From the IMG/VR virus record IMGVR_UViG_3300034072_000758, positions 427,030 through 491,029 of that record: 64,000 bases of DNA, one strand, 5' to 3'. Each line of letters begins with the position of its first letter. Positions within the stretch are counted from its first letter, which is position 1. Source of the DNA: a virus. The position numbers and the translations under genes were made by a program. Of this stretch, positions 12,834-52,377 are shown in pieces. Under the pieces are notes generated by a model. The model saw only the letters and a program-made list of their open reading frames with translations. It was not told the DNA's origin and made no database searches.

Positions 12834-12840
12834 TTACTAC

Positions 12841-13509: not shown

Positions 13510-13581
13510 GCGGGTGTAACTCAGCGGTAGAGTGTCAGCCTTCCAAGCTGTTCGTCGCAGGTTCGATCCCTGTCACCCGCT
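13510..13581 (+). tRNA. tRNA-Gly (anticodon UCC)
   Basis: Acceptor GCGGGTG/CACCCGC, D-arm ACTC-AGCGGTA-GAGT, anticodon loop CTTCCAA, T-arm GCAGG-TTCGATC-CCTGT. Confidence 0.7.
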
Positions 13582-13600
13582 CTCTACAAAGGACATCAAG

Positions 13601-17948: not shown

Positions 17949-17976
17949 GGATATATTTGATATGCTGTCAACATAT
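17949..17976 (+). promoter_or_regulatory. sigma70-like promoter TTGACA-N16-TATGCT
   Basis: Seen directly. It overlaps the ORF-track start at 17962, which favours the downstream start at 18004. Confidence 0.45.
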
Positions 17977-18003
17977 CGTCATTCACTAGAAGGATCACAA
18001 AAT

Positions 18004-23412: not shown

Positions 23413-26400
23413 TTAAACACGATTTTGATCCGAGATGAATATTAATCCATCGTAGACCGGTGTGCCGGTGTCATAATAAGATTGCTCAAACTTTTTGATC
23501 AGATAAACGGTTGTTCCGAAGTTCGGGGCTTTCTTGAAATTGACAGTCAAGCCGCTCGAAGTCGTAGTCACCGTATAATCAACAGTGAAAGTCTTCGCAG
23601 AAAGGACAGGGAACCCCGTGTATCCATCGCTGGTGATCAGTGTTCCATTAGCATATACCAGAGGCTCATAGACCGCCACAGACAGCCCATCCATACTATT
23701 TACACCCATCATAGTGAAAGATTTGTTCGATCCATTCCCAGCAGCACTCACCTTGAATATACGCTCATTGCCGACCGAGGTATTATGTGTCCCGCGACGA
23801 AGACCAGACAATTCGGTAACGCCACCATTTACAGTGATATTATCGAACTCAATCCGCTCACCATTGATCCAAATAACGCCACAACGATCCTGCTGTGTTA
23901 TGCTGCCATCCAAAGCTTGAACGTCAATGACACGTGGGGGAATAAGATCGCCAGTTACCGACAGATAGATCGTGGAATTATTCAGATATAATGGTTGACT
24001 TAATGTTGCCACAGAAGATGTCATGTCAATAAGACGGAATGAATCTTCTCTCGCAACAAGAATTGGTATATCATTTTCTACGGCACCGACGACGCCAGTA
24101 TCGAACGAATATTCTTCCACTCCACCGGCATCATAGTCACCAGTTTCCTTTGGATTGAAGAGATCATATGCTGGTCTCGTCAAAGACAATTTATAGCTTT
24201 CTGGGGTGATCAGCGGTGCGTCAAACACGGTGACTACAATGTTCGGAATATATTCGTCGGTCGATGGTGGTATATAGTCCCCAATACGGATCACTACGCG
24301 GTGAAGTTTGTTGTATTCGTTCACCCCAAATGCTTCAAAAATATCCCCGGCTTGGTCCATAAACACAGTTGGCCCATGCTTACCATAGGTATAACGATCA
24401 GATGAAGTACCAGCAAACCAAGAAACTGTATCCAGAGTTGGTCCAGCTACGTTAGACATGTAAGTAAATTCAGCGGCCTGAGTGTCATACGTAACGACAT
24501 CAGCTTGAATAGCAAAACCAATGTTACTGTTATGAACTCCACCCATTTCTTTACGCATGACCAAACGATAAGTATCCGCGTCTAGCTTTTTCGTCGTAAA
24601 CAACTCAGTGTAACCTACGTTTACTGTGAAGTTATTATCCGAAGTATCGATTACGGTCCCATCAAAACAAAGATCGGTGTTGGCCATATATGAACCAAAG
24701 ATCGTATCGAATTGAGTATCGACGGTACACTCCGCCCCCGGAGTAGAGAACGGCACATACCCCATCCAACCATTAGGGTAAGCAAACATGTTATTCTTGA
24801 CGTGCGGGCAGATATTTGACCACGTTACCGAAGTGCCGCCATTGGCGATGTCGGCAGACACATATTCCTCGTGCGCGAACTGAACGCGGTTCTTGGATAT
24901 GTAGTAATAGTAACGCATTTCCATAGTACCATTTGCGTAGTTCGGTAAGATAACGCCTTTACCATCGTCTCGTCCCGCCATAACCAGCGTATAGCTATCA
25001 TTTAACCACTGTGTTGTATTGGCAATAACGGTATCATCAGTTGCGCTCGGAACATATACTTGATCATTCCATTGTGCTATTGGCGGAAGCTTGAATAGTT
25101 GTAAACGCGAAACGCTATATCCAGTGGTAGCAGACACAAAGAATGAACCGGTATCTTGATCAAGATGTATACAGTTTATGGATGGTCCAATACCAGTCAG
25201 ATCATTGATACGATAAACGATACCACCGACCCTCACAGGGACTTGGTTGACAGTATCGACTTCATACAAAATAAACCACGGGCTATACGAACCATATCCA
25301 GTAGGCACACAGCTACCACCCACCACAAAATAATTTGTATCTGGGATACCAACCGCAAACGTGATGGATTGATAGAAATCATGCGGGACCGATGATGCTG
25401 GACTATCCGCATGAATGGTTACGTTGGCCACGGACTCATATGTGATTGTGCCGGTATTCACGTTCTGGAAAGAGAATGTTGTATCATCATTTCTAAAACG
25501 AATAAACACGGCGGTCGATCCATCTAAAGACAAATGAATTGGTGTATGGCTCCAAACCGAACTTATATCAGCGCTGTTCGCAACGGCATTGGCCACGAAC
25601 AAATAAGCTTCGTCTTGTTCTTCCGGGTAAGGAATATCCAGCGGGTTAGCGGCATCCTGATAAACACCGTCCACACTAATCCAAGTGTATGTCGGCCCAT
25701 TTAGTGACAGAACAACAGAGTTTTCGTCATTCACCAGAGAAGTCGCCATACCAGCGGCATTTGGATCAGTCAGATAGGTGATTTGAATTTCATCCCCCGC
25801 CGACAACACGGCGGTCATCACAACCGATGATCCCGTTACCGTATATTCATCCGGGTTCAGGCGCAGACCGTTGACATCCACGAACAATGTCTCCGGTGCT
25901 TGACTATTGTTTCCAATCACATATGTCGAGTTCGCATGGTAATTAAACACTTCGATCTGAACATTCGCCCCAGCGGTCAATTCGCTGAAAGTTCTCAGCG
26001 TGATTGTGTCGGCTGGTGTATTTGAAATAACGACCGTTTTGTTCCCGTGATCGACTGAATACAGGCTTGGTGAAATACGCTTACCATCAGCAAATGGAAC
26101 AACGACATCCGCATTTTCAGTATAAGATACGAGGTGAACCGTTCCGTTGCTTAAGATGTCGTGATAGCCTTGTACTGGCATAGAAGCGCCGCCAGACATG
26201 AATACGTCAATACTCAAGGTATCGCTCACCGAAGGAGCAACCAACTCTTCTGGGTTATTGCGCTCCATCTGAAAGCCATCTTGTTCGTTGATAGTATCGT
26301 CGCCATCCTGATCGAGAATTGTAAAATCCTTTTCATCCGTGAATGATCCACCATCAATGCGATCATCCTTGATGCCAGTCAGCTTTTCGATGTTTGTTTC

Positions 26401-29033: not shown

Positions 29034-30791
29034 ATGTCCACTATGATCAAAGTTGCCTCAGTGCAATTCAATCCCGTTGTCGGCGACGTATTCGGCAATG
29101 CGGAGCGTATGCTTCAACTATACATTGAAGCGGCAAAGACCGCCGATCTGGTAGTCTTCCCCGAATGCTCCATCAGTGGGTATCCCATCGAAGACCTCGC
29201 GTTGAAGGCGGATTTCATCGACAGATGTATCGAAGCGCGAAAATCATTCATTGATGCCGTGTATCTTTCCAAGGAAAAGGCCGGTGTCATTTTCGGATGC
29301 CCCAACCTAAACACCAATGGTAAAACCACAAACTCCGCATTCGCGGTCGATCCGGTTCACCAAGACTATTCGATCTTTGATAAACAACGCCTCCCGAATT
29401 ATGGCGTGTTCGATGAAGTCCGTACTTTTGCCCCAGCAACCAAGCCTCAACCAACATGGCAGTTCCGCGATCTCAAGATCGGCATTCTGATCTGCGAAGA
29501 TGCGTGGCATTCCGGTTCGTTGAGCGGATGTATTGGTGAGCATTTCCCCAACCTGATGATCAGCATCAATGGTTCGCCGTTCGAAATCGGCAAGAATGTC
29601 ATCCGCAAGAATGTAATCGTAGATCGTATCCACGAACTGTTCGAAGTCGGTGATGCGTTCGGCGTCCCCTTCGTCTATACCAACATGGTTGGTGGTCAAG
29701 ACGAGATCGTATTTGATGGTAATTCGTTTGTCATCGACAAGAATGGCTACCGGGCTGTGCCTACCTTCGAAGAAGGTGTTCACTATTTCGATGTCTCGCT
29801 GGACTCGTTCCAACCGGGCGTTTACGATGTCGAGCCTTCCAGCATTGCCGATGTCTACAAATGTCTTGTCACCGGCACGAGAGATTTCTTCGGAAAGCAA
29901 GGTTTCGTGTCCGGCGTTCTCGGCTATTCAGGTGGTGTAGATTCGGGTCTGGTGGCCGCTATCCTTGTGGATGCGCAAGGACCGAAAAATGCCAATCTCG
30001 TGTCTCTTCCGTCGAAGTTCTCGGACCAAGCCTCGAAAGACGATGCCTTGGAAGGCGCTATTCGTTTGGGCGCTAACTATCGGTCGATCAGCATTGAACC
30101 GATTGTCCAAGCCCTACGCGATGCCTACAAGCCGTCTGAATACAATCCAAACAGCATGTCCATGATGAATGGCGCTCGTAAAAATACTGGCACGATCTTC
30201 ACCACGGACCCGGAGTTGAGCAACTATTCGGGTGAACTGACCGGCGTGGCGGACGAAAACATCCAAGCTCGTGCTCGTGGTAATATCCTGATGGCTATCT
30301 CTAACCAAGAAGGCCACATGGTTCTGTCCACCGGTAATAAGTCGGAAGTGAGCCTCGGTTTCTGTACGATTTATGGTGACATGTCGGGTGGTTACAACCC
30401 GATCAAGGATTGCCCGAAGACGCTGGTATGGGCGCTATGTTTGTGGCGAAATCAAGCTGATCCGGCTGAATACGGCTTCCTTGGTCCCAAGGGTGAAGTT
30501 GTTCCGCAAGAGATCATCGACAAAAAGCCGGACGCTGGCTTGGCTGAAAATTCCAAAGGCGATCCGTTCGACTACCGCAACATCACCGATCCAATCCTCA
30601 ATATTTTGGTGGACAAGGCCGGTTCGGTTCAAGACGTGATCGATGCTGGTTTTGATCCTGCGGAAGCACAGCGCCACTACAAGCTTCTTCTGCGCTCGGA
30701 ATACAAGCGCCGCCAAGCATGTCCCGGCATCAAGATCACTTCCAAATTACACGGGCGGGATCGACGTATCCCAATCGTCTATCGAGAATAA
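29034..30791 (+). CDS. nadE: glutamine-dependent NAD+ synthetase (N-terminal CN-hydrolase/nitrilase domain + C-terminal NAD synthetase domain)
   Basis: Nitrilase catalytic residues (FPE..K..ILICEDAWH). ATP-pyrophosphatase P-loop LGYSGGVDSGL. 585 aa. Confidence 0.85.
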   Translation: MSTMIKVASVQFNPVVGDVFGNAERMLQLYIEAAKTADLVVFPECSISGYPIEDLALKADFIDRCIEARKSFIDAVYLSKEKAGVIFGCPNLNTNGKTTNSAFAVDPVHQDYSIFDKQRLPNYGVFDEVRTFAPATKPQPTWQFRDLKIGILICEDAWHSGSLSGCIGEHFPNLMISINGSPFEIGKNVIRKNVIVDRIHELFEVGDAFGVPFVYTNMVGGQDEIVFDGNSFVIDKNGYRAVPTFEEGVHYFDVSLDSFQPGVYDVEPSSIADVYKCLVTGTRDFFGKQGFVSGVLGYSGGVDSGLVAAILVDAQGPKNANLVSLPSKFSDQASKDDALEGAIRLGANYRSISIEPIVQALRDAYKPSEYNPNSMSMMNGARKNTGTIFTTDPELSNYSGELTGVADENIQARARGNILMAISNQEGHMVLSTGNKSEVSLGFCTIYGDMSGGYNPIKDCPKTLVWALCLWRNQADPAEYGFLGPKGEVVPQEIIDKKPDAGLAENSKGDPFDYRNITDPILNILVDKAGSVQDVIDAGFDPAEAQRHYKLLLRSEYKRRQACPGIKITSKLHGRDRRIPIVYRE

Positions 30792-31325: not shown

Positions 31326-32681
31326 ATGCCTCCATTTTTATGGATTGTAATCCCGGTAGCGGTTGTTGCCTTCTTGGTCATCACCGCGATCCTGTTGTCG
31401 TTCGCATGGCGCGTTGTCGTTGATACGAACAAGGTCCACATCGTTCAGTCTCGCAAAAAGACAACCAGCTACGGCGTCGGCGCTGAACACGGTAACGTCT
31501 ATTACCGCGTCCCATCATTCATCCCGGTTTGGGGTGTTACAACCATCGAGCTTCCAGTCAGCAACTTTGATCTGTCTCTGAACAGCTATAAAGCATATGA
31601 CAAAGACCGCGTTCCGTTCGAACTCGACATTACCGCGTTCATGCGTATCGCTGACACCAATACCGCCGCAGCGCGCGTTTCCAGCTTCACCGACTTGAAG
31701 ACCCAACTCCAATCGGTCGTACAAGGCGCTGTTCGTAAAATTCTGTCGTCCTATGACATCAACACTGTTATGGGTGATCGCTCGACTTTCGGTCAACAAT
31801 TCACTGACGAAGTAAAAGCCGAACTCGCCAATTGGGGCGTTGAGCCGGTTAAGAACCTCGAACTGATGGACATCCGTGACTCGGACGGCTCTAAGGTAAT
31901 CGCTAACATCATGGCGAAGAAGACCTCGTTCATCGAAATGGAATCCCGCGTCGAAGTCGCCAAGAACCAGCAAGCCGCTAAGGAAGCTGAAATCGCTGCC
32001 GGTCAAGCCGTTCTCATTCGTGAGCAAGAAGCCCAACAACAAGTTGGTGAACGTACTGCGCAGCAAGAGCGCGCTACGGGTATCGCCAAAGAAAAGTCTC
32101 GCCAAGACATACAGCAAGAAGCCGCTATCACCAAAGAGCGCGAAATGGAAGTTCTTTCGGTTGAAACCCAGCGTAATGCTGAAATCACCAAAAAGGCTCA
32201 AGTCGTTCTGGCTGAACAGCAACGCGATACTGACGTTATTAAAGCTGAGGCTCAAAAGAAGACCACAGTTCTGATCTCCGAAGGTAATCTCCAAGAAGCT
32301 AAGCTCACCGCCGAAGGTATCAAGGCAAAGGGTGAGGCCGAAGCTGCTGCGAAGCAAGCGATGGAAACCGCTCCGGTTCAAGCTCAAATCCTGCTGGCGC
32401 AGGAAATTGGTGAAAACCAAGGCTACCAAAAGTACCTTATCGATCTGCGTGAGGTAGAAGCCTCTCAGGTGGTTGGTGTGGCTCAGGCCGCTGCCCTCCA
32501 AAAGGCTGAGATCAAGATCATCGCCAACAACGACACTGCTTCTAAGGGTCTGAACTCGGTCGGTGAACTGTTCTCGTCCACGGGCGGCACAAAGCTCGGT
32601 GCTATGGTCGAAGGCTTCGCTCAGACCGAAGAAGGCCGCAAGCTGATCGACAAGTTTATCGGTAAGGGCGGCGCTGCTTAA
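31326..32681 (+). CDS. SPFH/band-7 (flotillin/YqiK-like) membrane protein
   Basis: N-terminal TM helix. Band-7 core (VHIVQSRKK...GVTTIELPV...). Long Ala/Gln/Glu-rich coiled-coil tail. Confidence 0.7.
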   Translation: MPPFLWIVIPVAVVAFLVITAILLSFAWRVVVDTNKVHIVQSRKKTTSYGVGAEHGNVYYRVPSFIPVWGVTTIELPVSNFDLSLNSYKAYDKDRVPFELDITAFMRIADTNTAAARVSSFTDLKTQLQSVVQGAVRKILSSYDINTVMGDRSTFGQQFTDEVKAELANWGVEPVKNLELMDIRDSDGSKVIANIMAKKTSFIEMESRVEVAKNQQAAKEAEIAAGQAVLIREQEAQQQVGERTAQQERATGIAKEKSRQDIQQEAAITKEREMEVLSVETQRNAEITKKAQVVLAEQQRDTDVIKAEAQKKTTVLISEGNLQEAKLTAEGIKAKGEAEAAAKQAMETAPVQAQILLAQEIGENQGYQKYLIDLREVEASQVVGVAQAAALQKAEIKIIANNDTASKGLNSVGELFSSTGGTKLGAMVEGFAQTEEGRKLIDKFIGKGGAA

Positions 32682-35899: not shown

Positions 35900-36316
35900 G
35901 TGTTATCTAAATATAGCATTGTTCGGAGACTGGCGCTCGTGCCAAAGGTTTATCAAAATTTGTCTGGCACGACAAAAGACTCTTTTAAGATCGGCAAGAA
36001 CGGTCCTGAAATCATTCGTGGATACGGAGAGCCAGAGGTCGAAGCTACAAATGGTAGTCTATACGTCGATCAAACCGATGGTGAACTTTATCAATATAAA
36101 AAAGACGAATGGGTTCTCCTGTCCAAGGACTACGCGAGCTTCCATTATCTGTCCCTGTTGGCCCAGCACGAGACGATCCAGCACATAGCCACTCTCATGT
36201 GTCAGGCAAAAGAAAAGAGCCAATTCCCGTGGAAAGTGACTCTTACTTTATTCGGACTATTTGCCGCGTTTGCGATCCCCGGCGTGATCCTTATCTGGTT
36301 ATTCTTTCCCGACTAA
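35900..36316 (+). CDS. fiber-associated protein sharing a conserved N-terminal domain (VYQNLSGTTKDSFKIGKNGPEIIRG) with the gene at 55502..55963
   Basis: Paralogous N-terminus seen by eye. The start may be an internal GTG. Confidence 0.45.
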   Translation: MLSKYSIVRRLALVPKVYQNLSGTTKDSFKIGKNGPEIIRGYGEPEVEATNGSLYVDQTDGELYQYKKDEWVLLSKDYASFHYLSLLAQHETIQHIATLMCQAKEKSQFPWKVTLTLFGLFAAFAIPGVILIWLFFPD

Positions 36317-37576
36317 CCATTCACCCGGAAGATCATAATTGTCGATGATCTTCTTGTTCATGTCGCCATACAGGCTGATCGACGGCTTGCGATTGATCAG
36401 ATCATTGTGGAACGCCTGAACCTGTTCGCGGGACGTGCGTTCAGCTTCTTCGAGGATTCCGCCCACGTTATCGTAGCTTCGGCCTTCATCGAACATGTCG
36501 GCCAGAACGAATTGCATCAGTTCGCCGTATTCTTCATCGACCTTGGAAATTTCCACAAGGGCCTTATTCTTCGCCAGCGTCCAGTCGGCATCGGTGATAC
36601 CGTTTTCGGCGATGGTGCGCAGCGTTTTACCGATGGCGATAAAGCATTTCTTGAGGTTCTTTTTCGTCGTTTCGAACGCGATGACAAAGAGTTCCGTATC
36701 GTTGGAATAGTGGGCGCTGACATGGTAGCACAGACCCAACTTCTCGCGTACTTCAACGAACAGAGGCGACGACATGCCACCAGACAGAACATCGGTGAGA
36801 AGATAGGACAGAACGCGCTCGTCACGCTTTACCGGAAAGGCGATGCGACCCTTAACCGAACCCTTCGGGGGAGACGGAATAACGACTGTGCCACCCACGT
36901 ATTCCGCCTTTTCAGTCGGAACCTTTTGGCCTTGAGGCAGCTTCATGACGTGGCTGGCTTTCACCTTTTTCACGAACTCGTCATGATCGACATTACCACC
37001 ACAGAACACGATCATGTTCTGGGTGAAATAGTTGGCCTTGTGATAGACCGCCAGATCGTCTTCGACGTTGATATTTGTGATGGTTTCTTCCGTGCCGAGC
37101 GTTTCGCGGCCCAGAGCGCTGCCGGGATATGCCGCCGCTTTCAGGCCGTTGTAGACCATCTTGCCGCCATTGGTTTGGGTCATGGCGAACTCTTGGAGGA
37201 TGACATCGCGTTCCTTCTCGATTTTGTTGAAAGCGATGTTGGTCACCATGTCGGTGAGAAGGTCGAGCGAATTATCCACAAACTTACCGAGACCTTCCAC
37301 GAAATAAACCGTGTGGCGGGCCGAGGTGTACGCATTGAAGGACGAGCCGAGCGATTCGATTTCGGATGAAATAGCGAACGAATCTTCCCGGTTGGAAGTA
37401 CCGTTAAACATCATGTGTTCGAGGAAGTGAGCGGTGCCTTGCTTTACGTCATTTTCATCACTGGAACCAGCGTTGACGGCGACCGCAACAAGCGAAGAGT
37501 GAGTTTGCCTTTGAGCGGTGATGACCGTTAGGCCATTGTCGAGGACGGTGGTTCTGATGTTTGTGTAAAATGACAT
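36299..37576 (-). CDS. M16-family zinc metallopeptidase (pitrilysin/insulinase-like)
   Basis: Inverted zinc motif HFLEHMMF (HxxEH) near the N-terminus. 425 aa. Confidence 0.7.
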   Translation of the reverse strand: MSFYTNIRTTVLDNGLTVITAQRQTHSSLVAVAVNAGSSDENDVKQGTAHFLEHMMFNGTSNREDSFAISSEIESLGSSFNAYTSARHTVYFVEGLGKFVDNSLDLLTDMVTNIAFNKIEKERDVILQEFAMTQTNGGKMVYNGLKAAAYPGSALGRETLGTEETITNINVEDDLAVYHKANYFTQNMIVFCGGNVDHDEFVKKVKASHVMKLPQGQKVPTEKAEYVGGTVVIPSPPKGSVKGRIAFPVKRDERVLSYLLTDVLSGGMSSPLFVEVREKLGLCYHVSAHYSNDTELFVIAFETTKKNLKKCFIAIGKTLRTIAENGITDADWTLAKNKALVEISKVDEEYGELMQFVLADMFDEGRSYDNVGGILEEAERTSREQVQAFHNDLINRKPSISLYGDMNKKIIDNYDLPGEWLVGKE

Positions 37577-37709: not shown

Positions 37710-38240
37710 ATGGGTACTCGTCATTTGGTGGTTGTTCGCTTGAACAATGAAGTAAAAGTCGCTCAGTATGGTCAATTCGACGGTTATATGAGCGGGGCTG
37801 GTAGAACAATACAACGTATTTTGTCGTTTGCTGATTTGAATTTGCTAAAAGAGTTAGTAGCAAAATGTTGGTGGATCACAGATGATGAACACAACAAGAT
37901 GATGGCTGATCTTGGTGTCAAAAGTAATGACGGTTGGATTAGCTTGGATGACAGTAAAAAAATTGAAAAAGCTTATCCGCATCTTCATCGCAATTGTAGC
38001 GCCGAAGTCATCACTGAAATTCTCAACAGCGAAAACGGATTACCGCTTCAAAATTCATACGATTTTGGAGAAGATGGACTTTTTTGCGAATACACCTATA
38101 CGGTCGATCTCGACAATGATACATTGACCGCACAAAGCGGGGGTTTGGACGGCAAAGTCCTTTTCCAAGGACCAATCAACACGCTCCACACAATCCCACC
38201 ATTTGAAGACCCCAAAGACGAAGAAGAAGACGAAGAATGA
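37710..38240 (+). CDS. hypothetical protein with acidic C-terminus ([10 protein letters not shown])
   Basis: 176-aa ORF with an ATGA overlap with aspS. Confidence 0.5.
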
Positions 38241-40018
38241 CCAAGACAAACATGCGAACGCAAACCTGTGGTGAATTGACCGTGGCCTATACTGGCGACA
38301 CGGTGAGCCTGTGTGGCTGGATTCACCGCAAGCGAGATCATGGCGGCTTGCTGTTCATCGACTTACGTGACAATTACGGACTGACCCAGATCGTAATGCA
38401 AAAGACCGCTGCCTGTTTCTCGGTGGTGGAGCACCTTCGCCAAGAAAGCGTAATTCGCGTAATCGGTAAGGTCGTAACGAGAACGGAAAATACACAAAAC
38501 CCGAACCTCGCAACCGGGCAGATCGAAGTCATCGCTTCGGAAATTACAGTTCTGTCGGAAGCCTCGGAACTTCCAGTGCCAGTGTTCGGTGATGTTCAGT
38601 ATCCAGAAGACCAACGTTTGAAGCATCGCTATCTCGATCTTCGCCGTGACGAACTCCACTCAAACATCCTGCTGCGCTCCAAGATCATTAGCTACCTGCG
38701 TAGGTTCATGGAGGGCGAAGGCTTTACTGAGTTTCAGACGCCTATTCTGACCGCATCTTCCCCAGAAGGCGCGCGCGACTTCCTCATTCCATCACGCCTT
38801 CATCCCGGCAAATTTTATGCCCTGCCTCAAGCACCACAACAATTCAAGCAACTTTTGATGGTGTCTGGCTTTGACCGCTATTTCCAGATCGCACCTTGCT
38901 TCCGCGACGAAGCCGCCCGTGCTGACCGGTCGCCGGGTGAGTTCTATCAACTCGATATTGAAATGTCTTTCGTCAATCAGGAAGACGTTTTCTCTCAGGC
39001 TGAACGTATCCTTCATTCGACCTTTACTGAGTTCTCGAACGGGAAGACCGTAAGTTCGTACCCATTCCAGCGAATCACCTACAAGGACTCGATGGAAAAA
39101 TACGGCAACGATAAGCCCGATCTTCGTAACCCAATCGTCATGAGCGATGCTTCGCTTTATTTCGTGAACGGCGGCTTCGGTCTGTTTGAGAAAATGGCCA
39201 GCGACGGCAAAAGCTCGATCTGGGCTATTCCGGTCAAGGGCAATGGAAACATCAATCGCAAATTCTGCGACAAGATGAACTCTTGGGCCATCGAAGAAGG
39301 CCAAAAAGGTATGGGATATATCTATTGGAACGAAGAAGGCGCACAAGGCCCAATCGCCAAGAATCTCCATGCCGATAAGCTGGGACAATTGGAAGCCGCC
39401 TATGAATTGGGTAACGGTGATGCCATATTCTTCGTGGCCGGGATCAAAAAGGATTTCCTCAAGTTCTGCGGATTCGCCCGCACCAAGATCGCCGAAGAAC
39501 TCGGTCTGATCAAGGATGATCATTTCCATTTCTGCTGGGTGGTGGATTTCCCAATGTTCGAACTATCGAACGAAGGCAAAATCGATTTCGCCCACAATCC
39601 GTTCTCTATGCCACAAGGCGAAATGGAAGCTCTGGAAACCAAGAACCCGCTGGATATTCTGGCCTATCAGTACGACATCGTGTGTAACGGCATCGAACTG
39701 TCCTCCGGGGCTATTCGTAACCACCGACCCGACATCATGCTCAAGGCTTTTGAAATCGCTGGTTACAAGGCCGAGGAAGTGGAAGAACGCTTCGGCGGTA
39801 TGTTGAACGCATTCCGCTATGGCGCGCCTCCCCACGGTGGTCTGGCTCCCGGTGTTGACCGCATGGTCATGATGCTGGCTAATAAATCCTCCATCCGAGA
39901 CATCATCGCTTTCCCGCTGAATCAGCAAGGACAAGATTTGATGATGAACGCACCATCGGAAGTCACGGATAAACAACTCAAAGAGTTGAACATCCGAACA
40001 TACAAGCCATTGAGCTAA
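38237..40018 (+). CDS. aspS: aspartyl-tRNA synthetase (class II, bacterial-type)
   Basis: N-terminal OB anticodon-binding fold. Class II motif 2 (FRDE...R...F.Q.D.E) and motif 3 ([14 protein letters not shown]). 593 aa. Confidence 0.85.
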
Positions 40019-40449: not shown

Positions 40450-41676
40450 TTACAGCCACACTTTCCCATATGCTGATTGAAGAATAGACGGGATGAACAC
40501 TTTACCACCTTCGTCCTGATAGTTTTCCAGAACAGCCAACAAAGTTCTACCAACCGCCAGTCCAGACCCATTTAAGGTGTGGACTGGTTCTTTTTTGCCT
40601 TGAGCATTGGTGAAGCGAGTCTTCATGCGATTGGCTTGGAAATCGCCACAATTGGATACCGAGCTAATCTCACGATAAGTTTTCTGTGATGGCACCCAAA
40701 CTTCGATGTCGTAAGTCTTTTGTGCTCCGAAGCCCATGTCACCCGCGCATAATAACATGATGCGATATTTTATACCCAATGAAGTGAGGATGTTTTCAGC
40801 ACAAGATAACATGAACTCGTGCTCTTGTGCCGACTTCTCAGGCGTAGTGATCGACACCATTTCAACTTTGTTAAATTGATGCTGGCGTAAGATGCCATGC
40901 GTGTCCTTACCAGCGCTTCCGGCTTCGGATCGGAAACATGGGGTCAGCGCAGTTAGACGAAGGGGTAATTCACCCTCAGCCAAAATCTTATCAGCGACAT
41001 AATTTGTCAAAGTCACTTCGGCGGTCGGGATCAGAAAATGTTCATCAGTGTTCACCGAGTACAGGTCATCGATGAATTTAGGAAGCTGACCAGTTCCATA
41101 CAAGGCCGTGTCTTTCACCAGCAACGGAGTGGAGCATTCCTCGAATCCATTTTTAACCTGACATTCAAGCATATACTGCCCGATAACTCGTTCGAGACGT
41201 GCCACGGGGCCGCGCATGAATGAGAAGCGTGTGCCAGACATCGCTACCCCCGCTGATATATCGAGGCCGTATTTGCTCCCGATCTCAACATGGTCTTTCG
41301 GGTCTTTTATGGAACGGAGCGGAATATCATTGACACGAACCAATTGATTGTCGTGCTCGTCTTTTCCAACCGGAACGTCATTGGCTGGGACATTTGGGAT
41401 GTCGAACAAATAGTCTTCAAGTTCCCCGGCCAGATAATCGACCAAGCCTTCGGCAGTAGTTATTTCGGCCTTCACCGCCACCCCGGTTTCATGGTCTTTA
41501 TTCCGCGCGGCATCCTTGCGCTTGGCGTACAAAGCCTCAAGATCAGTCAACGATTTACGATGATCTGTATCCTTTTTGAGAATGTCCGAAACTATCCGAG
41601 ACCCGTCAAGCCCTCTCTTATTCAACCCGCTGGCAACGGCTTCTGGATTCTCGCGGATGGTCTTTATATTGATCAT
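40450..41676 (-). CDS. serS: seryl-tRNA synthetase (class II)
   Basis: N-terminal coiled-coil tRNA-binding arm. Motif 2 (FRSEAGSAGKDTHGILRQHQFNKVE). Motif 3 (GSGLAVGRTLLAVLENYQ). 408 aa. Confidence 0.85.
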   Translation of the reverse strand: MINIKTIRENPEAVASGLNKRGLDGSRIVSDILKKDTDHRKSLTDLEALYAKRKDAARNKDHETGVAVKAEITTAEGLVDYLAGELEDYLFDIPNVPANDVPVGKDEHDNQLVRVNDIPLRSIKDPKDHVEIGSKYGLDISAGVAMSGTRFSFMRGPVARLERVIGQYMLECQVKNGFEECSTPLLVKDTALYGTGQLPKFIDDLYSVNTDEHFLIPTAEVTLTNYVADKILAEGELPLRLTALTPCFRSEAGSAGKDTHGILRQHQFNKVEMVSITTPEKSAQEHEFMLSCAENILTSLGIKYRIMLLCAGDMGFGAQKTYDIEVWVPSQKTYREISSVSNCGDFQANRMKTRFTNAQGKKEPVHTLNGSGLAVGRTLLAVLENYQDEGGKVFIPSILQSAYGKVWL

Positions 41677-43592: not shown

Positions 43593-44348
43593 ATGAGCAT
43601 CAGACCAAGAGACCGCCTAAAAAGAGAAATCAACATCATGTTGGGTGGAACCCTCGTAGATGTTGAATTGGAAGACCTCGAACTGGATTTGGCTATCGAC
43701 ATTACATTGGATCGCTATCGCCAACGCAGCGGTAATTCAATGGAAGATGGTTATATTTTTATGACCATGACCGATCAACAGGTCTATCAGCTTCCAGCCG
43801 AAGTTCAGGTTGTAAAGTCCGTTCTCAGAACCGGCTATGGTCAATTTGGTACAGAAGAACCATTCTCATTGGCCTTCGTAAACCAAATGTATTACATGAA
43901 CAGCCCATCCGGTATGGGTGCTCCCGGTGGTACTGCGGGCTTCCTGTCAACATATGATATGTCGGCTCAATATTCTGAACTGTCTGCGCGTCTGTTTGGT
44001 CGTGACGTTGACTTCACTTGGAACGCTCAAACCAAGCGCATTCAAATGGCTCGCAGACCAATGATCGGTGAGCAAGTCGCACTGGAAGTCATGCTGATTA
44101 AACCAGAAGATGTGATCATTGACGATTTCGCCGCTAAGGGTTGGATCAGAAGCTACGCAATGTCTCAGGCTAAAATGATCTTGGGTCAAGGTCGCGGCAA
44201 GTTTGCTACCTTTGCTGGCCCACAAGGCGGAATTACTCTGAACGGCGCTGAACTTAAGCAAGAAGCGGTGGCCGAGATCGAAAAATTAGATGCTGAGCTT
44301 ACCAACCTAATCGACGCCAATAGAGGCTTCCCATTCATAATTGGATAA
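43593..44348 (+). CDS. hypothetical protein (251 aa)
   Basis: Long ORF. Confidence 0.5.
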   Translation: MSIRPRDRLKREINIMLGGTLVDVELEDLELDLAIDITLDRYRQRSGNSMEDGYIFMTMTDQQVYQLPAEVQVVKSVLRTGYGQFGTEEPFSLAFVNQMYYMNSPSGMGAPGGTAGFLSTYDMSAQYSELSARLFGRDVDFTWNAQTKRIQMARRPMIGEQVALEVMLIKPEDVIIDDFAAKGWIRSYAMSQAKMILGQGRGKFATFAGPQGGITLNGAELKQEAVAEIEKLDAELTNLIDANRGFPFIIG

Positions 44349-44349: not shown

Positions 44350-44378
44350 TTGACAGCAAGAAAATATATTGCTAGATT
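44350..44378 (+). promoter_or_regulatory. sigma70-like promoter TTGACA-N17-TAGATT
   Basis: Seen directly. Confidence 0.5.
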
Positions 44379-44410: not shown

Positions 44411-44602
44411 ATGGAATATCGTTTTTCGTATACTGATCTGAGTGGGGGCAGCGTTATGGTGTCTACCCGCGATTACAGCGAGGCAAAGAGACAGTACGAC
44501 AACGTAACCACGAAGTATCTGTGTAAATTCCTCCTTCACTTCGGCGATAATGGCTGGCAAGTCATTGAACAAAGCCTCCCGGTTTATGGAAGGGCAGCAT
44601 AA
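44411..44602 (+). CDS. hypothetical protein
   Basis: 63-aa ORF with RBS GGGGG. Confidence 0.45.
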   Translation: MEYRFSYTDLSGGSVMVSTRDYSEAKRQYDNVTTKYLCKFLLHFGDNGWQVIEQSLPVYGRAA

Positions 44603-44904
44603 TGGACAAGACACAAGTTGCGCTGGGGATCGTGCGCGAGGCTCATTCGCTGTCTCCCGAAGAGTTCCAAAATCGCTATCCGCCGAAGACTGATCGGATG
44701 TATGATCCGAACGACCCCTTCTACATGACTTCGACGGATTATTTGAACCAATATAATCCCAACCGTCTCCATTGTGCGGATGGCGGCGCTTGTCACCACG
44801 CTTGCGCTTCGAACGAGGCCGGGGCCTGTTTCCGACGTGATACTTGCGGGCCGCTCAGTAATAGTGGCTGGGAAATGAAAGACGGAAAGTGGGTACAAGA
44901 ATGA
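44602..44904 (+). CDS. small Cys-rich protein (CADGGACHHACASNEAGACFRRDTC)
   Basis: 100-aa ORF with an ATGA overlap. Cys cluster. Confidence 0.45.
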   Translation: MDKTQVALGIVREAHSLSPEEFQNRYPPKTDRMYDPNDPFYMTSTDYLNQYNPNRLHCADGGACHHACASNEAGACFRRDTCGPLSNSGWEMKDGKWVQE

Positions 44905-45905
44905 CCATCGTTCATAAACTTCAAGAGCACGGACTAATCAGTCCGCCGAAATGGTTGCCGGATAACCTCGCGTATCTGGTCATCATGGGATCGATGGCTT
45001 ACGGCGTCAATACGGACACGTCCGATATGGATGTGTATGGCTTTGCTGTGCCTCCCAAGGAGATCGTATTTCCACACCTGACCGGCTATATCCCCGGCTT
45101 TGGTAACCACCCGGAAAAGTTCGATCAGTGGTCCGAGCATCACATCAGACAGAACCAGAAGGAATACGACTTCTCGGTCTATTCCATCGTGCGATATTTC
45201 GATCTGTGTAGGGAAAACAACCCCAACATGATTGATAGCCTTTTCGTGCCGGACAACTGCGTGATGTTCCAATCCAAAGTCGGTGAGATCGTCCGCGAGA
45301 ACAAACACGCCTTCCTTCACAAGGGGGCTTTCCACAAATACAAAGGCTATGCTTACGCGCAAATCGGGCGTTACAAGTCTCTGTCCCCGGAGAGCAAGCT
45401 TGGCTCCATCCGTATCAAGATGGGTGAAGAAGGTTTGGAGTTCGATGCCTTCAAAGAAAAGGTGGATAGTGGGGAGCTTGTTCTATCAGCTTCGATGAAG
45501 CGTGATTTCGACGGCCTGAACGAACGCCAAATCAACACCATCAAGGAAGGTGTGGATCGCAAGGCTATGTATCACGTGGTTCGTTTGATGAACGAGCTTG
45601 AGCAAATCCTGACAACAGGGACGCTTGATCTCCAAATCAATCGGGAACAGCTTAAGTCTATTCGTCGTGGCGAGTGGACACCTGAGCAAATCTTTGAATA
45701 CTTCGAGCGCAAGGAAGCCGAACTCGACGGCATCCAATTGACCTCGAACGTGCTTCCACATGGCCCTAACATGAAACAGCTTCACAGCATTCTGGTAAGC
45801 TGTCTGGAAGAGGTTTATGGGTCTCTGGACAACATGATCTCCCAGAATAAAGATGATCGATTACTGGTCGAATTGAAAGGTCTCGTGAAAAAGTTCGACG
45901 TATAG
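44889..45905 (+). CDS. Pol-beta-superfamily nucleotidyltransferase-domain protein (cGAS/DncV/MNT/OAS-type GS...DxD fold)
   Basis: N-terminal signature GSMAYGVNTDTSDMDVYGF (G[GS]-x9-13-[DE]h[DE]h). Helical C-terminal domain. 338 aa. Confidence 0.5.
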   Translation: MGTRMTIVHKLQEHGLISPPKWLPDNLAYLVIMGSMAYGVNTDTSDMDVYGFAVPPKEIVFPHLTGYIPGFGNHPEKFDQWSEHHIRQNQKEYDFSVYSIVRYFDLCRENNPNMIDSLFVPDNCVMFQSKVGEIVRENKHAFLHKGAFHKYKGYAYAQIGRYKSLSPESKLGSIRIKMGEEGLEFDAFKEKVDSGELVLSASMKRDFDGLNERQINTIKEGVDRKAMYHVVRLMNELEQILTTGTLDLQINREQLKSIRRGEWTPEQIFEYFERKEAELDGIQLTSNVLPHGPNMKQLHSILVSCLEEVYGSLDNMISQNKDDRLLVELKGLVKKFDV

Positions 45906-45906
45906 C

Positions 45907-45934
45907 TTGACAAAGGTGAGTATTGGTGTATGTT
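45907..45934 (+). promoter_or_regulatory. sigma70-like promoter TTGACA-N16-TATGTT overlapped by a 9-bp inverted repeat GGTGAGTAT...ATACTCACC
   Basis: Seen directly. The IR spans the -10 element and the leader (45913-45960). Confidence 0.45.
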
Positions 45935-45980
45935 GGTATCACAAAATATCGATACTCACCTTTTTCAAGGAGATTTAAAT

Positions 45981-46112
45981 ATGTTCATCACCAACGAAAT
46001 GCGCAACTGGCTGAACAGCCAATCAATCCAAGACCTCCGCGATGCCCTGCGGGCCGACATAGGCGATCTGGCTCAGGTCATCCGCGACGAACTCAATCTG
46101 CGGACGGCCTAA
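45981..46112 (+). CDS. small hypothetical protein (43 aa)
   Basis: ORF 45930..46112 trimmed to the ATG with a strong AAGGAGA RBS. Confidence 0.4.
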   Translation: MFITNEMRNWLNSQSIQDLRDALRADIGDLAQVIRDELNLRTA

Positions 46113-46321
46113 TGTTCGACTGGTATCTCGTGAAGCCCGGTCGATATGAAAACGCCGAAAAGACAAGGGCGCTGGTATTCTCCGATGACGGTGCCGTCTG
46201 GTGGAATGTCCCGGCTGTAAAGACTGGACCGGGATATAACCTTGGTGACATGTGTGGGCCTTACAGAGAGGCCGAACACGCTGGGACACTCGATCAAGCG
46301 CCGGTTCTCCCACCACTATAA
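46112..46321 (+). CDS. hypothetical protein (69 aa)
   Basis: TAATG coupling. Followed by a bidirectional terminator. Confidence 0.45.
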   Translation: MFDWYLVKPGRYENAEKTRALVFSDDGAVWWNVPAVKTGPGYNLGDMCGPYREAEHAGTLDQAPVLPPL

Positions 46322-46350
46322 AAAAGCCCGCTTCAAGCGGGCTTTTTTTA
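46321..46350. terminator. bidirectional rho-independent terminator (A-run, GCCCGCTT-caa-GCGGGC, T-run)
   Basis: Seen directly between convergent genes. Confidence 0.7.
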
Positions 46351-50383: not shown

Positions 50384-50460
50384 TTGGCAGGGGTGGAGAG
50401 ATTCGAACTCCCATCGCGCAGTTTTGGAGACTGCCGCTCTAACCGTTGGAGCTACACCCC
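50384..50460 (-). tRNA. tRNA-Trp (anticodon CCA), CCA encoded
   Basis: Minus strand: acceptor AGGGGTG/CACCCCT, D-arm GCTC-CAACGGTTA-GAGC, anticodon stem GCAGT/ACTGC with loop CTCCAAA, T-arm GGGAG-TTCGAAT-CTCTC. Confidence 0.75.
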
Positions 50461-50473
50461 TATAGGCGATCAA

Positions 50474-50752
50474 TCACTTGACCGCAAAGGAAGAAATGAG
50501 CTTACAACTCGTTTTTACAAACCCTACATAACGAGGGTCCGAGAAACGGTCGAAGTCATTCAAATAATCGAAGTCCGCCTTGTCGATTTCATACACATGA
50601 TATTCGACGGCTGGTGAATGCTGTTCTACAACCGTAAAACTACGGTCGCTTCTCAAGCCACGTTCTTTATCTGCGATCTTCACAGCTTCAATCGGCCTTA
50701 AGTTATTCGTCAAGGCGACGATATGATTTTGATTCAAAACAGCGGTACGCAT
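50474..50752 (-). CDS. hypothetical protein
   Basis: 92-aa ORF between tRNAs. Confidence 0.45.
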   Translation of the reverse strand: MRTAVLNQNHIVALTNNLRPIEAVKIADKERGLRSDRSFTVVEQHSPAVEYHVYEIDKADFDYLNDFDRFSDPRYVGFVKTSCKLISSFAVK

Positions 50753-50812
50753 ACTATTACTCCTTACCCGACATTAATAATTTATTTACATTATCAAAGT
50801 CAATTTTATTTT

Positions 50813-50903
50813 TGGAGGACGTGGTGGGACTCGAACCCACGGTGGTCTATGTTACGACAACAGGTTAAGAGCCTGTCCCTCTCGCCGCTGAGGTGACACG
50901 TCC
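50813..50903 (-). tRNA. atypical type-II (long variable arm) tRNA with lysine anticodon CUU; chimeric derivative of the canonical tRNA-Lys(CUU) at 51517-51593
   Basis: 5' GGACGTG-TCA-CCTC-AGCGGCGA-GAGG-G-ACAGG-CTCTTAA-CCTGT-[TGTCGTAACATAGACCACC]-GTGGG-TTCGAGT-CCCAC-CACGTCC-T-CCA. Acceptor stem, T-arm and anticodon loop are identical to the canonical Lys(CUU). It adds a Ser/Tyr-like D-arm and a 19-nt variable arm. Confidence 0.55.
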
Positions 50904-50997
50904 GTATCAAAAATGTAGGGAGATCGGGTTCACCACAATCATGCTGGTACACAAGGTCGTCACATGATTAGTAACCCACTAGGGCATGGCTCCAGCT

Positions 50998-51074
50998 TGG
51001 TGAACACGGTGGGGGTCGAACCCACGACCTACTGATTAAAAGTCAGTTGCTCTACCTACTGAGCTACGTGTTCG
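50998..51074 (-). tRNA. tRNA-Lys (anticodon UUU), canonical, CCA encoded
   Basis: GAACACG-TA-GCTC-AGTAGGTA-GAGC-A-ACTGA-CTTTTAA-TCAGT-AGGTC-GTGGG-TTCGACC-CCCAC-CGTGTTC-A-CCA. Confidence 0.75.
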
Positions 51075-51154
51075 TGCGCCCTGTCGGACTCGAACCGACA
51101 CTCGTTAGAAGCAGATTTTAAGTCTGCCGGGTCTACCAATTTCCCCAAGGGCGC
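51075..51154 (-). tRNA. tRNA-Leu (anticodon UAA), type II
   Basis: Acceptor GCGCCCT/AGGGCGC, Leu-type D-arm, anticodon stem GCAGA/TCTGC with loop CTTAAAA, 13-nt variable arm, T-arm GTCGG-TTCGAGT-CCGAC. Confidence 0.7.
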
Positions 51155-51204
51155 TTAGGTACTTTTCTTGTAAACATCAAAGATGATTTTGGCAACATCT
51201 TTGT

Positions 51205-51280
51205 TGGCGAGGATAGAAGGATTCGAACCTCCGACACATGCGTTCGAAGCGCATTGCTCTGTCCACTGAGCTATATCCCC
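51205..51280 (-). tRNA. tRNA-Arg (anticodon UCG), CCA encoded
   Basis: GGGGATA-TA-GCTC-AGTGGACA-GAGC-A-ATGCG-CTTCGAA-CGCAT-GTGTC-GGAGG-TTCGAAT-CCTTC-TATCCTC-G-CCA. Confidence 0.7.
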
Positions 51281-51281
51281 G

Positions 51282-51366
51282 TGCGCCGAGAGGGATTCGA
51301 ACCCTCATACCATTACGGTGTCCGTTTTTGAAACGGGTGCGTCTACCAAAGTTCCGCCACCAGCGC
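51282..51366 (-). tRNA. tRNA-Leu (anticodon CAA), type II
   Basis: Acceptor GCGCTGG/TCGGCGC (two G-U pairs), D-arm GCG-GAACTTTGGTAGA-CGC, anticodon loop TTCAAAA, T-arm GAGGG-TTCGAAT-CCCTC. Confidence 0.65.
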
Positions 51367-51417
51367 ATAGAAAACCTTTAATATAGATCGTTATCCACAT
51401 CCATATTAAAGGTTATG

Positions 51418-51501
51418 AGGATGTAGAGGGACTCGAACCCCCGATGGTCTTTTGACAACGGATTAAAAGCCCGTCCCTCTCGCCGCTGAGGTGATACATC
51501 C
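51418..51501 (-). tRNA. atypical type-II (long variable arm) tRNA with lysine anticodon UUU
   Basis: 5' GGATGTA-TCA-CCTC-AGCGGCGA-GAGG-G-ACGGG-CTTTTAA-TCCGT-[TGTCAAAAGACCATC]-GGGGG-TTCGAGT-CCCTC-TACATCC-T. The 22-nt D-region TCACCTCAGCGGCGAGAGGGAC is identical to the other atypical tRNA. Confidence 0.55.
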
Positions 51502-51516
51502 ATAGTAGTATTTGTT

Positions 51517-51593
51517 TGGAGGACGTGGTGGGACTCGAACCCACAACATTCGGTTTAAGAGACCGACGCTCTAACCATTGTAGCTACACGTCC
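51517..51593 (-). tRNA. tRNA-Lys (anticodon CUU), canonical, CCA encoded
   Basis: GGACGTG-TA-GCTA-CAATGGTTA-GAGC-G-TCGGT-CTCTTAA-ACCGA-ATGTT-GTGGG-TTCGAGT-CCCAC-CACGTCC-T-CCA. Confidence 0.75.
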
Positions 51594-51610
51594 GTATCAA
51601 ACAAATACTG

Positions 51611-51683
51611 CGCGGATCAAGGGACTCGAACCCATAACCCTCTGTTTAGAAGACAGATGCTCGTCCAATTGAGCTTCATCCGC
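51611..51683 (-). tRNA. tRNA-Arg (anticodon UCU)
   Basis: Acceptor GCGGATG/GATCCGC (one mismatch), anticodon stem TCTGT/ACAGA with loop CTTCTAA, T-loop TTCGAGT. Stems are slightly imperfect. Confidence 0.55.
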
Positions 51684-51692
51684 ATAGTAGTG

Positions 51693-51778
51693 TGTGCCGA
51701 GGGGGACTCGAACCCCCACGCCCATTACAGGCCCCGGTTTCTGAAACCGGGAAGTCTACCAAATTTCATCATCAGCAC
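51693..51778 (-). tRNA. tRNA-Leu (anticodon CAG), type II
   Basis: Acceptor GTGCTGA/TCGGCAC, anticodon stem CCGGT/ACCGG with loop TTCAGAA, long variable arm, T-arm GGGGG-TTCGAGT-CCCCC. Confidence 0.65.
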
Positions 51779-51803
51779 GTATGCTCTTTCGAGCAAAGTC
51801 TTG

Positions 51804-51883
51804 TACGGGTGAGAGGACTCGAACCTCCACGATTGCTCGCTAGAACCTAAACCTAGTGCGTCTACCAGTTTCGCCACACCCGC
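51804..51883 (-). tRNA. tRNA-Leu (anticodon UAG), type II
   Basis: Acceptor GCGGGTG/CACCCGT, D-arm GCG-AAACTGGTAGA-CGC, anticodon stem CTAGG/TCTAG with loop TTTAGGT, T-arm GGAGG-TTCGAGT-CCTCT. Confidence 0.65.
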
Positions 51884-51884
51884 G

Positions 51885-51957
51885 CACTGCCAGTAGGACT
51901 CGAACCTACAACCTTCTGATTCGTAATCAGATGCTCATCCAGTTGAGCTATGGCAGC
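51885..51957 (-). tRNA. tRNA-Arg (anticodon ACG), copy 1
   Basis: GCTGCCA-TA-GCTC-AACTGGAT-GAGC-A-TCTGA-TTACGAA-TCAGA-AGGTT-GTAGG-TTCGAGT-CCTAC-TGGCAGT-G. Confidence 0.7.
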
Positions 51958-52081
51958 ATAAAGCAACAAGACGGTGGGGTTCGAACCCACAACCTTTCGG
52001 CTCCGACTTTGACCGCAACGGCTTTTCGCAAACCATTACGTGCGTGTGTATACCCATTCCACCACGCCAAGTTACTTCAAG
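51958..52081 (-). other. unassigned 124-nt spacer inside the tRNA array containing a T-arm-like palindrome GTGGGGTTCGAACCCAC but no foldable acceptor/anticodon arms
   Basis: Could not be folded into a cloverleaf on either strand. All other spacers in the array are 0-15 nt. Confidence 0.3.
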
Positions 52082-52166
52082 TGTCCATGAAAGGATTCGA
52101 ACCTTCACGCCCATTACAGGCAACAGCCTCTCAAGCTGCCGTGGCTACCAATTACACCACACGGAC
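52082..52166 (-). tRNA. tRNA-Leu (anticodon GAG), type II
   Basis: Acceptor GTCCGTG/CATGGAC, D-arm GTG-TAATTGGTAGC-CAC, anticodon stem GCAGC/GCTGT with loop TTGAGAG, T-arm GAAGG-TTCGAAT-CCTTT. Confidence 0.65.
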
Positions 52167-52175
52167 ATACGCAAG

Positions 52176-52292
52176 TGCGTTCGGGAGGATTCGAACCTCC
52201 AACCTCTATACTCGTTTGATCGTCATCCGACCAGTATAGCGGTATCCAACCCTCTAATGGGCTGGCGTGGCTACCAATTTCACCACGAGCGC
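52176..52292 (-). tRNA. atypical 117-nt Leu-like type-II tRNA with a non-canonical anticodon region (CCAGCCC-ATTAGA-GGGTTGG) and an oversized variable region; possible pseudogene, suppressor-like or insert-containing tRNA
   Basis: Acceptor GCGCTCG/CGAACGC (one C-A mismatch), Leu-type D-arm TG-GTG-AAATTGGTAGC-CAC, T-arm GGAGG-TTCGAAT-CCTCC. The middle section has a 7-bp stem, a 6-nt loop and a second 7-bp hairpin CTATACT...AGTATAG. Confidence 0.4.
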
Positions 52293-52302
52293 ATATTACG
52301 AG

Positions 52303-52377
52303 CGGGACTGGCAGGATTCGAACCTGCGACCTTCGGTTTCGTAGACCGGCGCTCTTATTCCGCTGAGCTACAGTCCC
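52303..52377 (-). tRNA. tRNA-Arg (anticodon ACG), copy 2 (different body)
   Basis: GGGACTG-TA-GCTC-AGCGGAATAA-GAGC-G-CCGGT-CTACGAA-ACCGA-AGGTC-GCAGG-TTCGAAT-CCTGC-CAGTCCC-G. Confidence 0.6.

Follow-up and report, generated by a model that had tools for sequence, protein, structure and literature searches.

A divergent RlaP-family nucleotidyltransferase, putatively active on RNA 3' ends, in a tRNA-rich huge phage

The gene at 44901..45905 (+ strand) of the window, i.e., of the whole 64-kb stretch analysed here from a phage contig of about 517 kb, very probably encodes a divergent member of the RlaP family (PF10127) of nucleotidyltransferases (NTases), judging from its sequence. The preferred reading, held at a probability of about 60%, is that the protein acts as a template-independent RlaP-type NTase on RNA 3' ends and serves to repair or maintain tRNAs in a translation-heavy huge phage. 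A gene earlier held unclassifiable is hereby assigned to a defined family, with nucleotide addition to RNA 3' ends as its testable activity. This adds a huge-phage case to the emerging picture of large tRNA-rich phages that carry RlaP within a translation-protecting toolkit.

Pfam entitles PF10127 'RNA repair pathway DNA polymerase beta family'. The protein matches this RlaP profile above its gathering threshold (60 bits for a cutoff of 23, E = 3.8e-16), the match being partial, from profile positions 19 to 170 of 249. It also matches PHROG 388 'nucleotidyltransferase' (1.1e-47), and 3613 homologues are retrieved from a search of 5.8 billion proteins, PF10127 being present in 120 of the 120 listed. 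An identical protein is encoded on a contig of 516,805 bp. NrdC.11 of phage T4, named as the T4 RlaP (PMC12776372), is homologous as well (BLASTP 3e-8; hhalign 94%, 25% identity). Identity to a canonical RlaP is about 23% across the NTase domain, with the GS, DxD and third Asp all aligning; this level of identity and the partial HMM match imply that the substrate specificity could differ from that of the Pseudomonas enzymes discussed below. Family and function had been left unknown by the sequence-only reading, a verdict superseded by these matches and by the existence of characterised RlaP enzymes (PMC12776372).

Relatives are found in 503 phage records by tblastn, headed by Rhizobium phage RHph_I1_18 (45%), Caulobacter phages CcrSC and CcrBL9 (43%) and Xanthomonas phages Xoo-sp13 and XacN1 (37-38%). 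More remote matches include Bxz1-like mycobacteriophages, Bacillus phage G and RaK2-like phages, and the best phage matches all come from large tRNA-rich phages. The protein is thereby akin to the PHROG 388 phage proteins, being homologous to RHph_I1_18 gp117 (45%) and CcrSC gp113 (43%), both carried by large, tRNA-bearing phages; other examples of this type occur in Xanthomonas XacN1, Mycobacterium Bxz1 (gp3) and Bacillus phage G (gp218). The gene neighbourhood, by contrast, is different in every phage examined. A literature search returned no biochemical study of the PHROG 388 or T4 NrdC.11 phage proteins. At the nucleotide level, megablast of the 43-47 kb region against phage records gave no match, and comparison of the NTase with PDB sequences by phmmer and profile search gave nothing relevant.

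As delimited mechanically, the NTase ORF extends on the + strand from a GTG at 44889 to 45905 and encodes 338 aa. The true start is almost certainly the ATG at 44901, yielding 334 aa, since the N-termini of homologues line up with MTIVHKL..., and 334 aa is also the length called independently on a Logan contig from SRR10854512. Directly 5' of the NTase, the window contains a 100-aa Cys-rich ORF (44602-44904), and with the start at 44901 the two genes share a 4-nt ATGA stop/start overlap. Thus, the coupling of both genes that had been recognized from the sequence is retained, whereas the 16-nt length given to their overlap is not.

The motif GSMAYGVNTDTSDMDVYGF is found in the NTase and corresponds, in the 334-aa numbering, to G30, S31, D42 and D44. 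The codons of this catalytic core span 44988..45032 (G30-S31 at 44988-44993, D42 at 45024-45026 and D44 at 45030-45032). These four residues and D90 (45168..45170) are invariant in two alignments, comprising 28 and 37 homologues with 45-57% identity, which upholds the expected conservation of the catalytic Asp pair, and the GS and DxD residues are also conserved in T4 NrdC.11 and in the canonical RlaP paralogue. D90 aligns with the Asp of 'IDHELYS' in T4 NrdC.11 and of 'ELDINGW' in canonical RlaP. In the same two alignments, the NNPN motif (106-109) and H80/H81 are invariant or nearly so; D112 (45234-45236) is near-invariant too, but falls within a helix.

The AF2 model of the NTase (pLDDT 94, pTM 0.85) consists of an alpha/beta NTase domain (residues 1-140) followed by an all-helical domain (residues 143-332). 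Strand 23-29 ends at G30-S31, strand 42-49 carries D42 and D44, and strand 87-95 carries D90; in this model, the strand layout is the standard Pol-beta one. On account of this layout, D90 is proposed as the third catalytic carboxylate, a residue that the sequence-only reading had left to be located. That reading had also described a Pol-beta-superfamily NTase with a GS...DxD signature and a helical C-terminal domain, and the family match, the alignments and the model all agree with it. Between both domains, the homologue alignment and the model reveal an inserted segment of about 45 aa (residues ~160-207, 45378..45521, + strand), modelled as three helices with pLDDT of at least 90. Fewer than half of the homologues share this insert, several of these being encoded on contigs longer than 500 kb (P0004, P0077 and P0103), and it is absent from the majority, which measure about 295 aa.

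Fold comparison also bears on what the enzyme could modify. The best match among viral models is a homologue (BFVD A0A292GK16, TM 0.78/0.89), and Foldseek matches of the NTase model to solved structures stay at the superfamily level (~10% identity, TM of 0.37 at most). ANT(4')/KNTase, LinB, AadA, Hailong HalB and MNT-HEPN, all solved Pol-beta NTases whose second domain is helical, are within these limits, with a large rmsd and no sequence-family match, and nothing in the present context points to the substrates on which they act (antibiotics, dATP polymerisation, HEPN toxin). A target other than RNA, be it a small molecule as for ANT/Lnu-like enzymes or a protein as in MNT-like AMPylation, e.g., a host factor or a toxin, is accordingly quite improbable: besides this distant structural likeness, the sequence family is RlaP, and the tested RlaPs exclude protein and DNA substrates (PMC12776372). 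Neither a HEPN-type partner nor an Rx4-6H motif is conserved. The combination of an above-threshold NTP_transf_2 match with a HEPN or antibiotic-binding domain, as in minimal NTases of the MNT/ANT type (PF01909 and relatives), was not found.

Making or modifying signalling nucleotides, or acting against host immune signalling such as CBASS or Thoeris, had been envisaged from the sequence. In such a role, the protein would be a CD-NTase/OAS-like maker or interceptor of signalling nucleotides, or a HalB-like oligonucleotide synthase. This is extremely unlikely, as neither PADLOC nor the SMODS/CD-NTase Pfam profiles give a match and CdnC, CdnD and cGAS are retrieved by Foldseek at a probability of 0.16 at most. 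The Mab-21 and OAS1_C domains and CBASS-type partners were looked for with the same outcome, no cyclase-type partner or effector gene lies nearby, and bacterial chromosomes commonly carry homologues that stand alone. The CBASS/Thoeris speculation is therefore removed.

RlaP owes its name to its linkage to RNA ligase genes, and its predicted task is to replace, ahead of ligation, the nucleotides that cleaved RNAs have lost; it is described as the most prevalent repair NTase among jumbo phages (PMC7824862). Two Pseudomonas members, PfRlaP and PaRlaP, whose genes lie between rtcB and rtcA, were described in a preprint of December 2025 (PMC12776372). Both label RNA but neither DNA nor protein, adding one or two NMPs (or dNMPs) onto the RNA 3'-OH with little NTP specificity and a preference for Mn2+ (PMC12776372). 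On a mimic of cleaved tRNA, they favour the 5' half over the acceptor 3' end; full-length tRNAs are also labelled in vitro (PMC12776372). They partly rescue the aminoacylation of a tRNA-Asp lacking one nucleotide of the anticodon loop, and RlaP has been proposed to counteract 'smart' ribotoxins, RloC among them, this in vivo role being a proposal (PMC12776372).

The phage protein resembles PfRlaP and PaRlaP in belonging to the same Pfam family above threshold and in sharing the set of GS, DxD and third Asp. Its AF2 model, alpha/beta in the N-terminal part and all-helical in the C-terminal part, appears compatible with the PfRlaP crystal structure as described, in which an NTase and a helical domain form a cleft (PMC12776372). 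It differs from them in being phage-encoded, longer because of its insert, located outside any RNA-ligase operon, and related to the canonical enzyme only through the distant identity and partial profile match reported above.

By analogy with these enzymes, a mechanism can be proposed for the preferred reading of an RNA 3'-end NTase. D42, D44 and D90, on the Pol-beta sheet behind the G30-S31 turn, would coordinate two divalent metal ions (by analogy, Mn2+), which would bind the NTP and activate the acceptor 3'-OH. The C-terminal helical domain, with K221, Y224, H225, R228 and R255, all invariant or nearly so in the two homologue alignments (n = 28 and 37), would form the other wall of the cleft holding the RNA end. 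One or two NMPs would then be added to RNA 3'-OH termini. In this way, the NTase may rebuild tRNA ends cut and trimmed by host ribotoxins, such as RloC-like anticodon nucleases or 3'-end-trimming toxins, after which a ligase or a CCA enzyme would complete the repair. The presumed outcome is the protection of the phage investment in translation.

This investment is large. The window contains 25 tRNA genes and 11 more stand just to its left, making at least 36, and it encodes three aminoacyl-tRNA synthetases: CysRS (7882-9216), AspRS (38237-40018) and SerRS (40450-41676). PTH2 is encoded left of the window and ribosomal protein S21 right of it. A distance of 4.5 kb separates the NTase from its closest tRNA gene, and in four of the seven homologue loci examined (L001, L003, L005 and L010) tRNA genes lie 0.7-5 kb from the RlaP gene. 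In RHph_I1_18, an aminoacyl-tRNA hydrolase gene is located 0.65 kb upstream of the NTase gene and a metallophosphoesterase gene 0.16 kb downstream. The tRNA-rich surroundings fit a tRNA-directed role, this proximity being only suggestive as these genomes are tRNA-dense. In addition, the phage tRNA set includes class-II-like (long-variable-arm) copies of tRNA-Lys.

The same chemistry could be directed at the 3' end of tRNAs, either from the phage or from the host, the NTase helping to rebuild or mature this discriminator/CCA region alongside a CCA-adding enzyme. An encoded CCA is absent from 15 of the 25 tRNA genes of the window, several of which abut without spacer; genes of the PolyA_pol type (CCA-enzyme family) and HD genes adjoin relatives of the NTase in 2-3 of 80 cellular loci, and RlaP does label full-length tRNAs in vitro (PMC12776372). 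However, the characterised RlaPs have little NTP specificity and disfavour the acceptor 3' end relative to the 5' half (PMC12776372), and PF01743 is not detected in the NTase, so this target is judged unlikely. The search for PF01743, extended up to E = 1, likewise gives no sign of a CCA-adding enzyme or poly(A) polymerase, and no CCA enzyme appears among the fold matches listed; the protein is thus not recognized as a fragment of such a housekeeping enzyme.

For the preferred role in RNA 3'-end repair, the ligase-gene neighbourhood from which RlaP was named is not found here. Indeed, no RNA ligase, PNK or RtcB was detected in the 64-kb window and about 10 kb on each side. The sole ligase-like ORF (18714-19337, 207 aa, with a K-L-N-G motif) is a marginal match to ATP-dependent DNA ligases located 26 kb from the NTase.

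The cellular relatives display the same feature. Among 185,579 species genomes, 226 relatives were identified, and the best 80 of them, at 40-49% identity, belong to contigs and chromosomes of Planctomycetota, Armatimonadota, Acidobacteriota and Proteobacteria, including the complete genomes of Desulfonema magnum and Singulisphaera. Neighbour clustering and a Pfam scan revealed no conserved operon around these best 80, the largest cluster comprising 7 of the 80 loci. The commonest adjoining family is a second, canonical RlaP (6 loci; 283 bits, full-length HMM match), followed by HD (3), PolyA_pol/CCA-type NTase (2), MnmG (2), RtcB (1) and QueC (1), and the remaining neighbours are unrelated housekeeping genes. 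The subfamily is thus mostly stand-alone and ligase association is not its property, which matters when extrapolating from the Pseudomonas enzymes. Its occurrence in tandem with a canonical RlaP in 6 of the 80 bacterial loci suggests a non-identical role.

These proteins may constitute a distinct stand-alone PF10127 subfamily, widespread in huge or jumbo phages and in chromosomes of Planctomycetota, Armatimonadota and Proteobacteria, with a substrate or nucleotide specificity differing from that of the RtcB-operon enzymes, e.g., the restoration of one particular nucleotide at one particular tRNA break or 3' end. Such a phage enzyme could act with the unusual tRNA set in an organised counter-defence against tRNA-targeting immunity, target recognition being provided by the ~45-aa insert and/or by the Cys/His module of the upstream protein. 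This extended proposal is tentative and rather doubtful.

The NTase gene is the last of three coupled ORFs on the + strand. They are preceded by a gene for a T4 gp13-like neck protein (43593-44348, + strand; PHROG 211, PF26809) and by a sigma-70-like promoter match at 44350..44378 (+ strand), TTGACA-17-TAGATT with TG, scoring 10/12 in a consensus scan. Since such sites number 10 in the region for 5.9 +/- 2.4 in shuffles, this is a weakly supported consensus match. The first coupled ORF (44411..44602, + strand, 63 aa) was called independently and has only a weak match to PHROG 26594; its stop overlaps the start of the 100-aa ORF (TAATG).

This second ORF (44602..44904, + strand) contains five Cys within 25 residues (C58, C64, C68, C76 and C82), confirming the Cys-cluster protein that had been seen upstream of the NTase and coupled to it. 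All five lie inside a conserved motif of the C-terminal residues 58-97, C-x-DGG-x-CHH-x-C-x(3-8)-C[FWY]R-x3-C-x-P[LF]S...W, the consensus from the alignment being C-P-D-G-G-x-C-H-H-x-C ... C-F-R-V-x-x-C-G-P-L-S ... W. C58, D60, G62, C64, H66, C68, C76, R78 and W97 are invariant in both alignments of the motif (A3, 17 sequences; A4, 40 sequences), and C82 is invariant in the former and at least 90% conserved in the latter. As the motif is conserved in other proteins, the ORF is a real gene rather than a chance reading frame; its frame also has the top codon-usage score of the six (+0.075), all others being negative. A phmmer search of 1.84 billion representatives gave 21 matches, all via the motif, and a profile search with the motif retrieved 82 proteins, mostly of 60-250 aa. 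The few Pfam matches among these 82 correspond to fusion partners: cold-shock domain, cytidine-deaminase domain, RNAP alpha CTD, PF24623, PF25311 and PF26435.

The protein itself matches PHROG 13737 (1.7e-5) and no Pfam, NCBIfam or PADLOC entry. Searches by tblastn against phage records returned nothing even at E = 10, a word-indexed protein search returned only the protein itself, and its AF2 model is poor (pLDDT 66). The Cys/His mini-domain is undescribed and absent from Pfam, and occurs in small, apparently phage-borne proteins. Its residues allow a guess at metal binding or disulfide bonding. The mini-domain and the class-II-like tRNA-Lys genes may outrank the NTase in interest.

The Cys-rich protein might be an NTase subunit or regulator, e.g., a Zn-binding RNA-recognition module, both proteins then forming a two-component enzyme. 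The ATGA coupling, the common putative promoter and terminator, and the occasional fusion of the module to nucleic acid-related partners (cold-shock domain, deaminase, RNAP alpha CTD) are in line with this partnership, whereas its distribution argues against it. Indeed, six-frame translations of the RlaP homologue loci L001-L010 lack the motif, and what is encoded upstream of the closest RlaP homologues bears no relation to the Cys-rich protein. Conversely, three module-bearing loci on long contigs show phage-like runs of small ORFs and no RlaP within 5 kb. Module and RlaP not being together in the other loci examined, their association is regarded as a local operon arrangement and not as a conserved two-gene system, and a two-component enzyme is very unlikely. 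The Cys-rich protein is co-translated with the NTase but probably functionally independent, and the pairing suggested by the sequence-only reading recurs at no other locus examined.

Downstream of the NTase, a strong stem-loop begins 1 nt past the stop (45906..45969, + strand; inverted repeat I1), with a Delta G of -32 kcal/mol and a z of -6.97 relative to shuffles. Its 18-nt arms are 94% complementary, a U-run is included in the 3' arm and it is unique in the window; it is possibly a terminator or a processing/stability element. Two small ORFs, both supported by an independent gene call, follow on the + strand: one of 43 aa with an AAGGAG ribosome-binding site (45982-46112) and one of 69 aa that ends the + strand block (46112-46321). 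Neither has a family match in Pfam, PHROG or PADLOC, and PADLOC reports nothing for all five ORFs of the block. Between the convergent gene blocks, a perfect palindrome at 46320..46348 (inverted repeat I2) is annotated as a bidirectional terminator, its arms AAAAAAGCCCGCTT and AAGCGGGCTTTTTT being 100% complementary.

The 100-aa Cys-rich protein encoded directly upstream of the RlaP-family nucleotidyltransferase ends in a Cys/His mini-domain (residues 58-97, window 44775-44895) with the motif CxDGGxCHHxC-x(3-8)-C[FWY]R-x3-CxP[LF]S...W. This mini-domain is previously undescribed, with no entry in Pfam, NCBIfam or PADLOC, and it is borne by about 80 small metagenomic proteins (P0122-P0218), three of them encoded in phage-like stretches of small ORFs. 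In occasional fusions it is joined to a cold-shock domain, to a deaminase or to an RNA polymerase alpha C-terminal domain.

Among the 80 bacterial loci bearing the closest cellular relatives of the nucleotidyltransferase (L017-L096), six have a paralogue of the canonical, full-length RlaP type (283 bits) directly after the homologue, as in the tandem pair L070:5001-5882 and L070:5977-6762. The occurrence of these pairs suggests that the subfamily of the phage enzyme and canonical RlaP are not redundant. A homologue is also found in L006 (positions 5597-6685 and 1437-3200), from the 542-kb contig of a related huge phage, near genes for an Acb1-family 2H phosphodiesterase, a GluRS/GlnRS-like synthetase and a PTH2-like protein.

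Right after the stop codon of the nucleotidyltransferase gene stands a 64-nt hairpin (45906-45969) of unusual stability (-32 kcal/mol, z = -7), present as a single copy within the window, whose 5' arm contains a perfect TTGACA. The first ATG of a mechanically called 60-aa ORF falls in its loop; the downstream ATG at 45982, preceded by an AAGGAG ribosome-binding site, is the better-supported start.

The window and its flanks carry at least 36 tRNA genes across about 74 kb, those of the window being located at 50385-52377 (-) and 55-13582 (+). The encoded CCA is missing from 15 of the 25 window genes and three gene pairs are joined without any spacer (51074/51073, 51281/51280 and 51884/51883). 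These tRNAs therefore depend on accurate processing and on the addition of CCA. The phage also encodes its own CysRS, AspRS and SerRS, a set of three genes found at 7882-9216 (-), 38237-40018 (+) and 40450-41676 (-). Close beyond the window ends (L015 and L016) are genes for PTH2, a DNMK-like kinase, ribosomal protein S21, a sigma-70 factor and an RNase H-like protein.

In bacteria, long variable arms are usually restricted to the tRNAs for Leu, Ser and Tyr; the phage has a SerRS of its own. Of the four tRNA-Lys genes in the window, two, at 50813-50903 (-) and 51417-51501 (-), possess a class-II-like long variable arm with a GUC...GAC stem (anticodons CUU and UUU), the canonical copies being at 50998-51073 and 51517-51593. 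The long-arm CUU tRNA-Lys has its acceptor stem in common with the canonical CUU copy. These long-arm forms could serve as decoys or in recoding, or they could be variants that evade nucleases.

A minimal ligase-like protein of 207 aa (18714-19337, +) carries a K-L-N-G motif I and an EGLVMK-like motif IV, and lacks the OB domain. It scores 27.4 bits against PF01068 (cutoff 26.2), matches PHROG 114 and gives a weak LigD-lig match; it could be either a DNA or an RNA ligase. No family match was found for the 250-aa protein coupled upstream (17962-18714).

A 1773-aa ORF (23413-28734, -) has no Pfam match; the genes flanking it encode a GIY-YIG-like protein (22560-23273) and proteins akin to tail fibre or head decoration proteins. 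The window also carries several auxiliary genes uncommon in phage, namely a glutamine-dependent NAD synthetase combining CN_hydrolase and NAD_synthase (29034-30791, +), an M16 insulinase-type peptidase (36299-37576, -), an SPFH/Band-7 protein (31326-32681, +), a class-3 lipase (15492-16319, +) and a Gcw_chp/porin-like outer-membrane beta-barrel protein (16320-16982, -).
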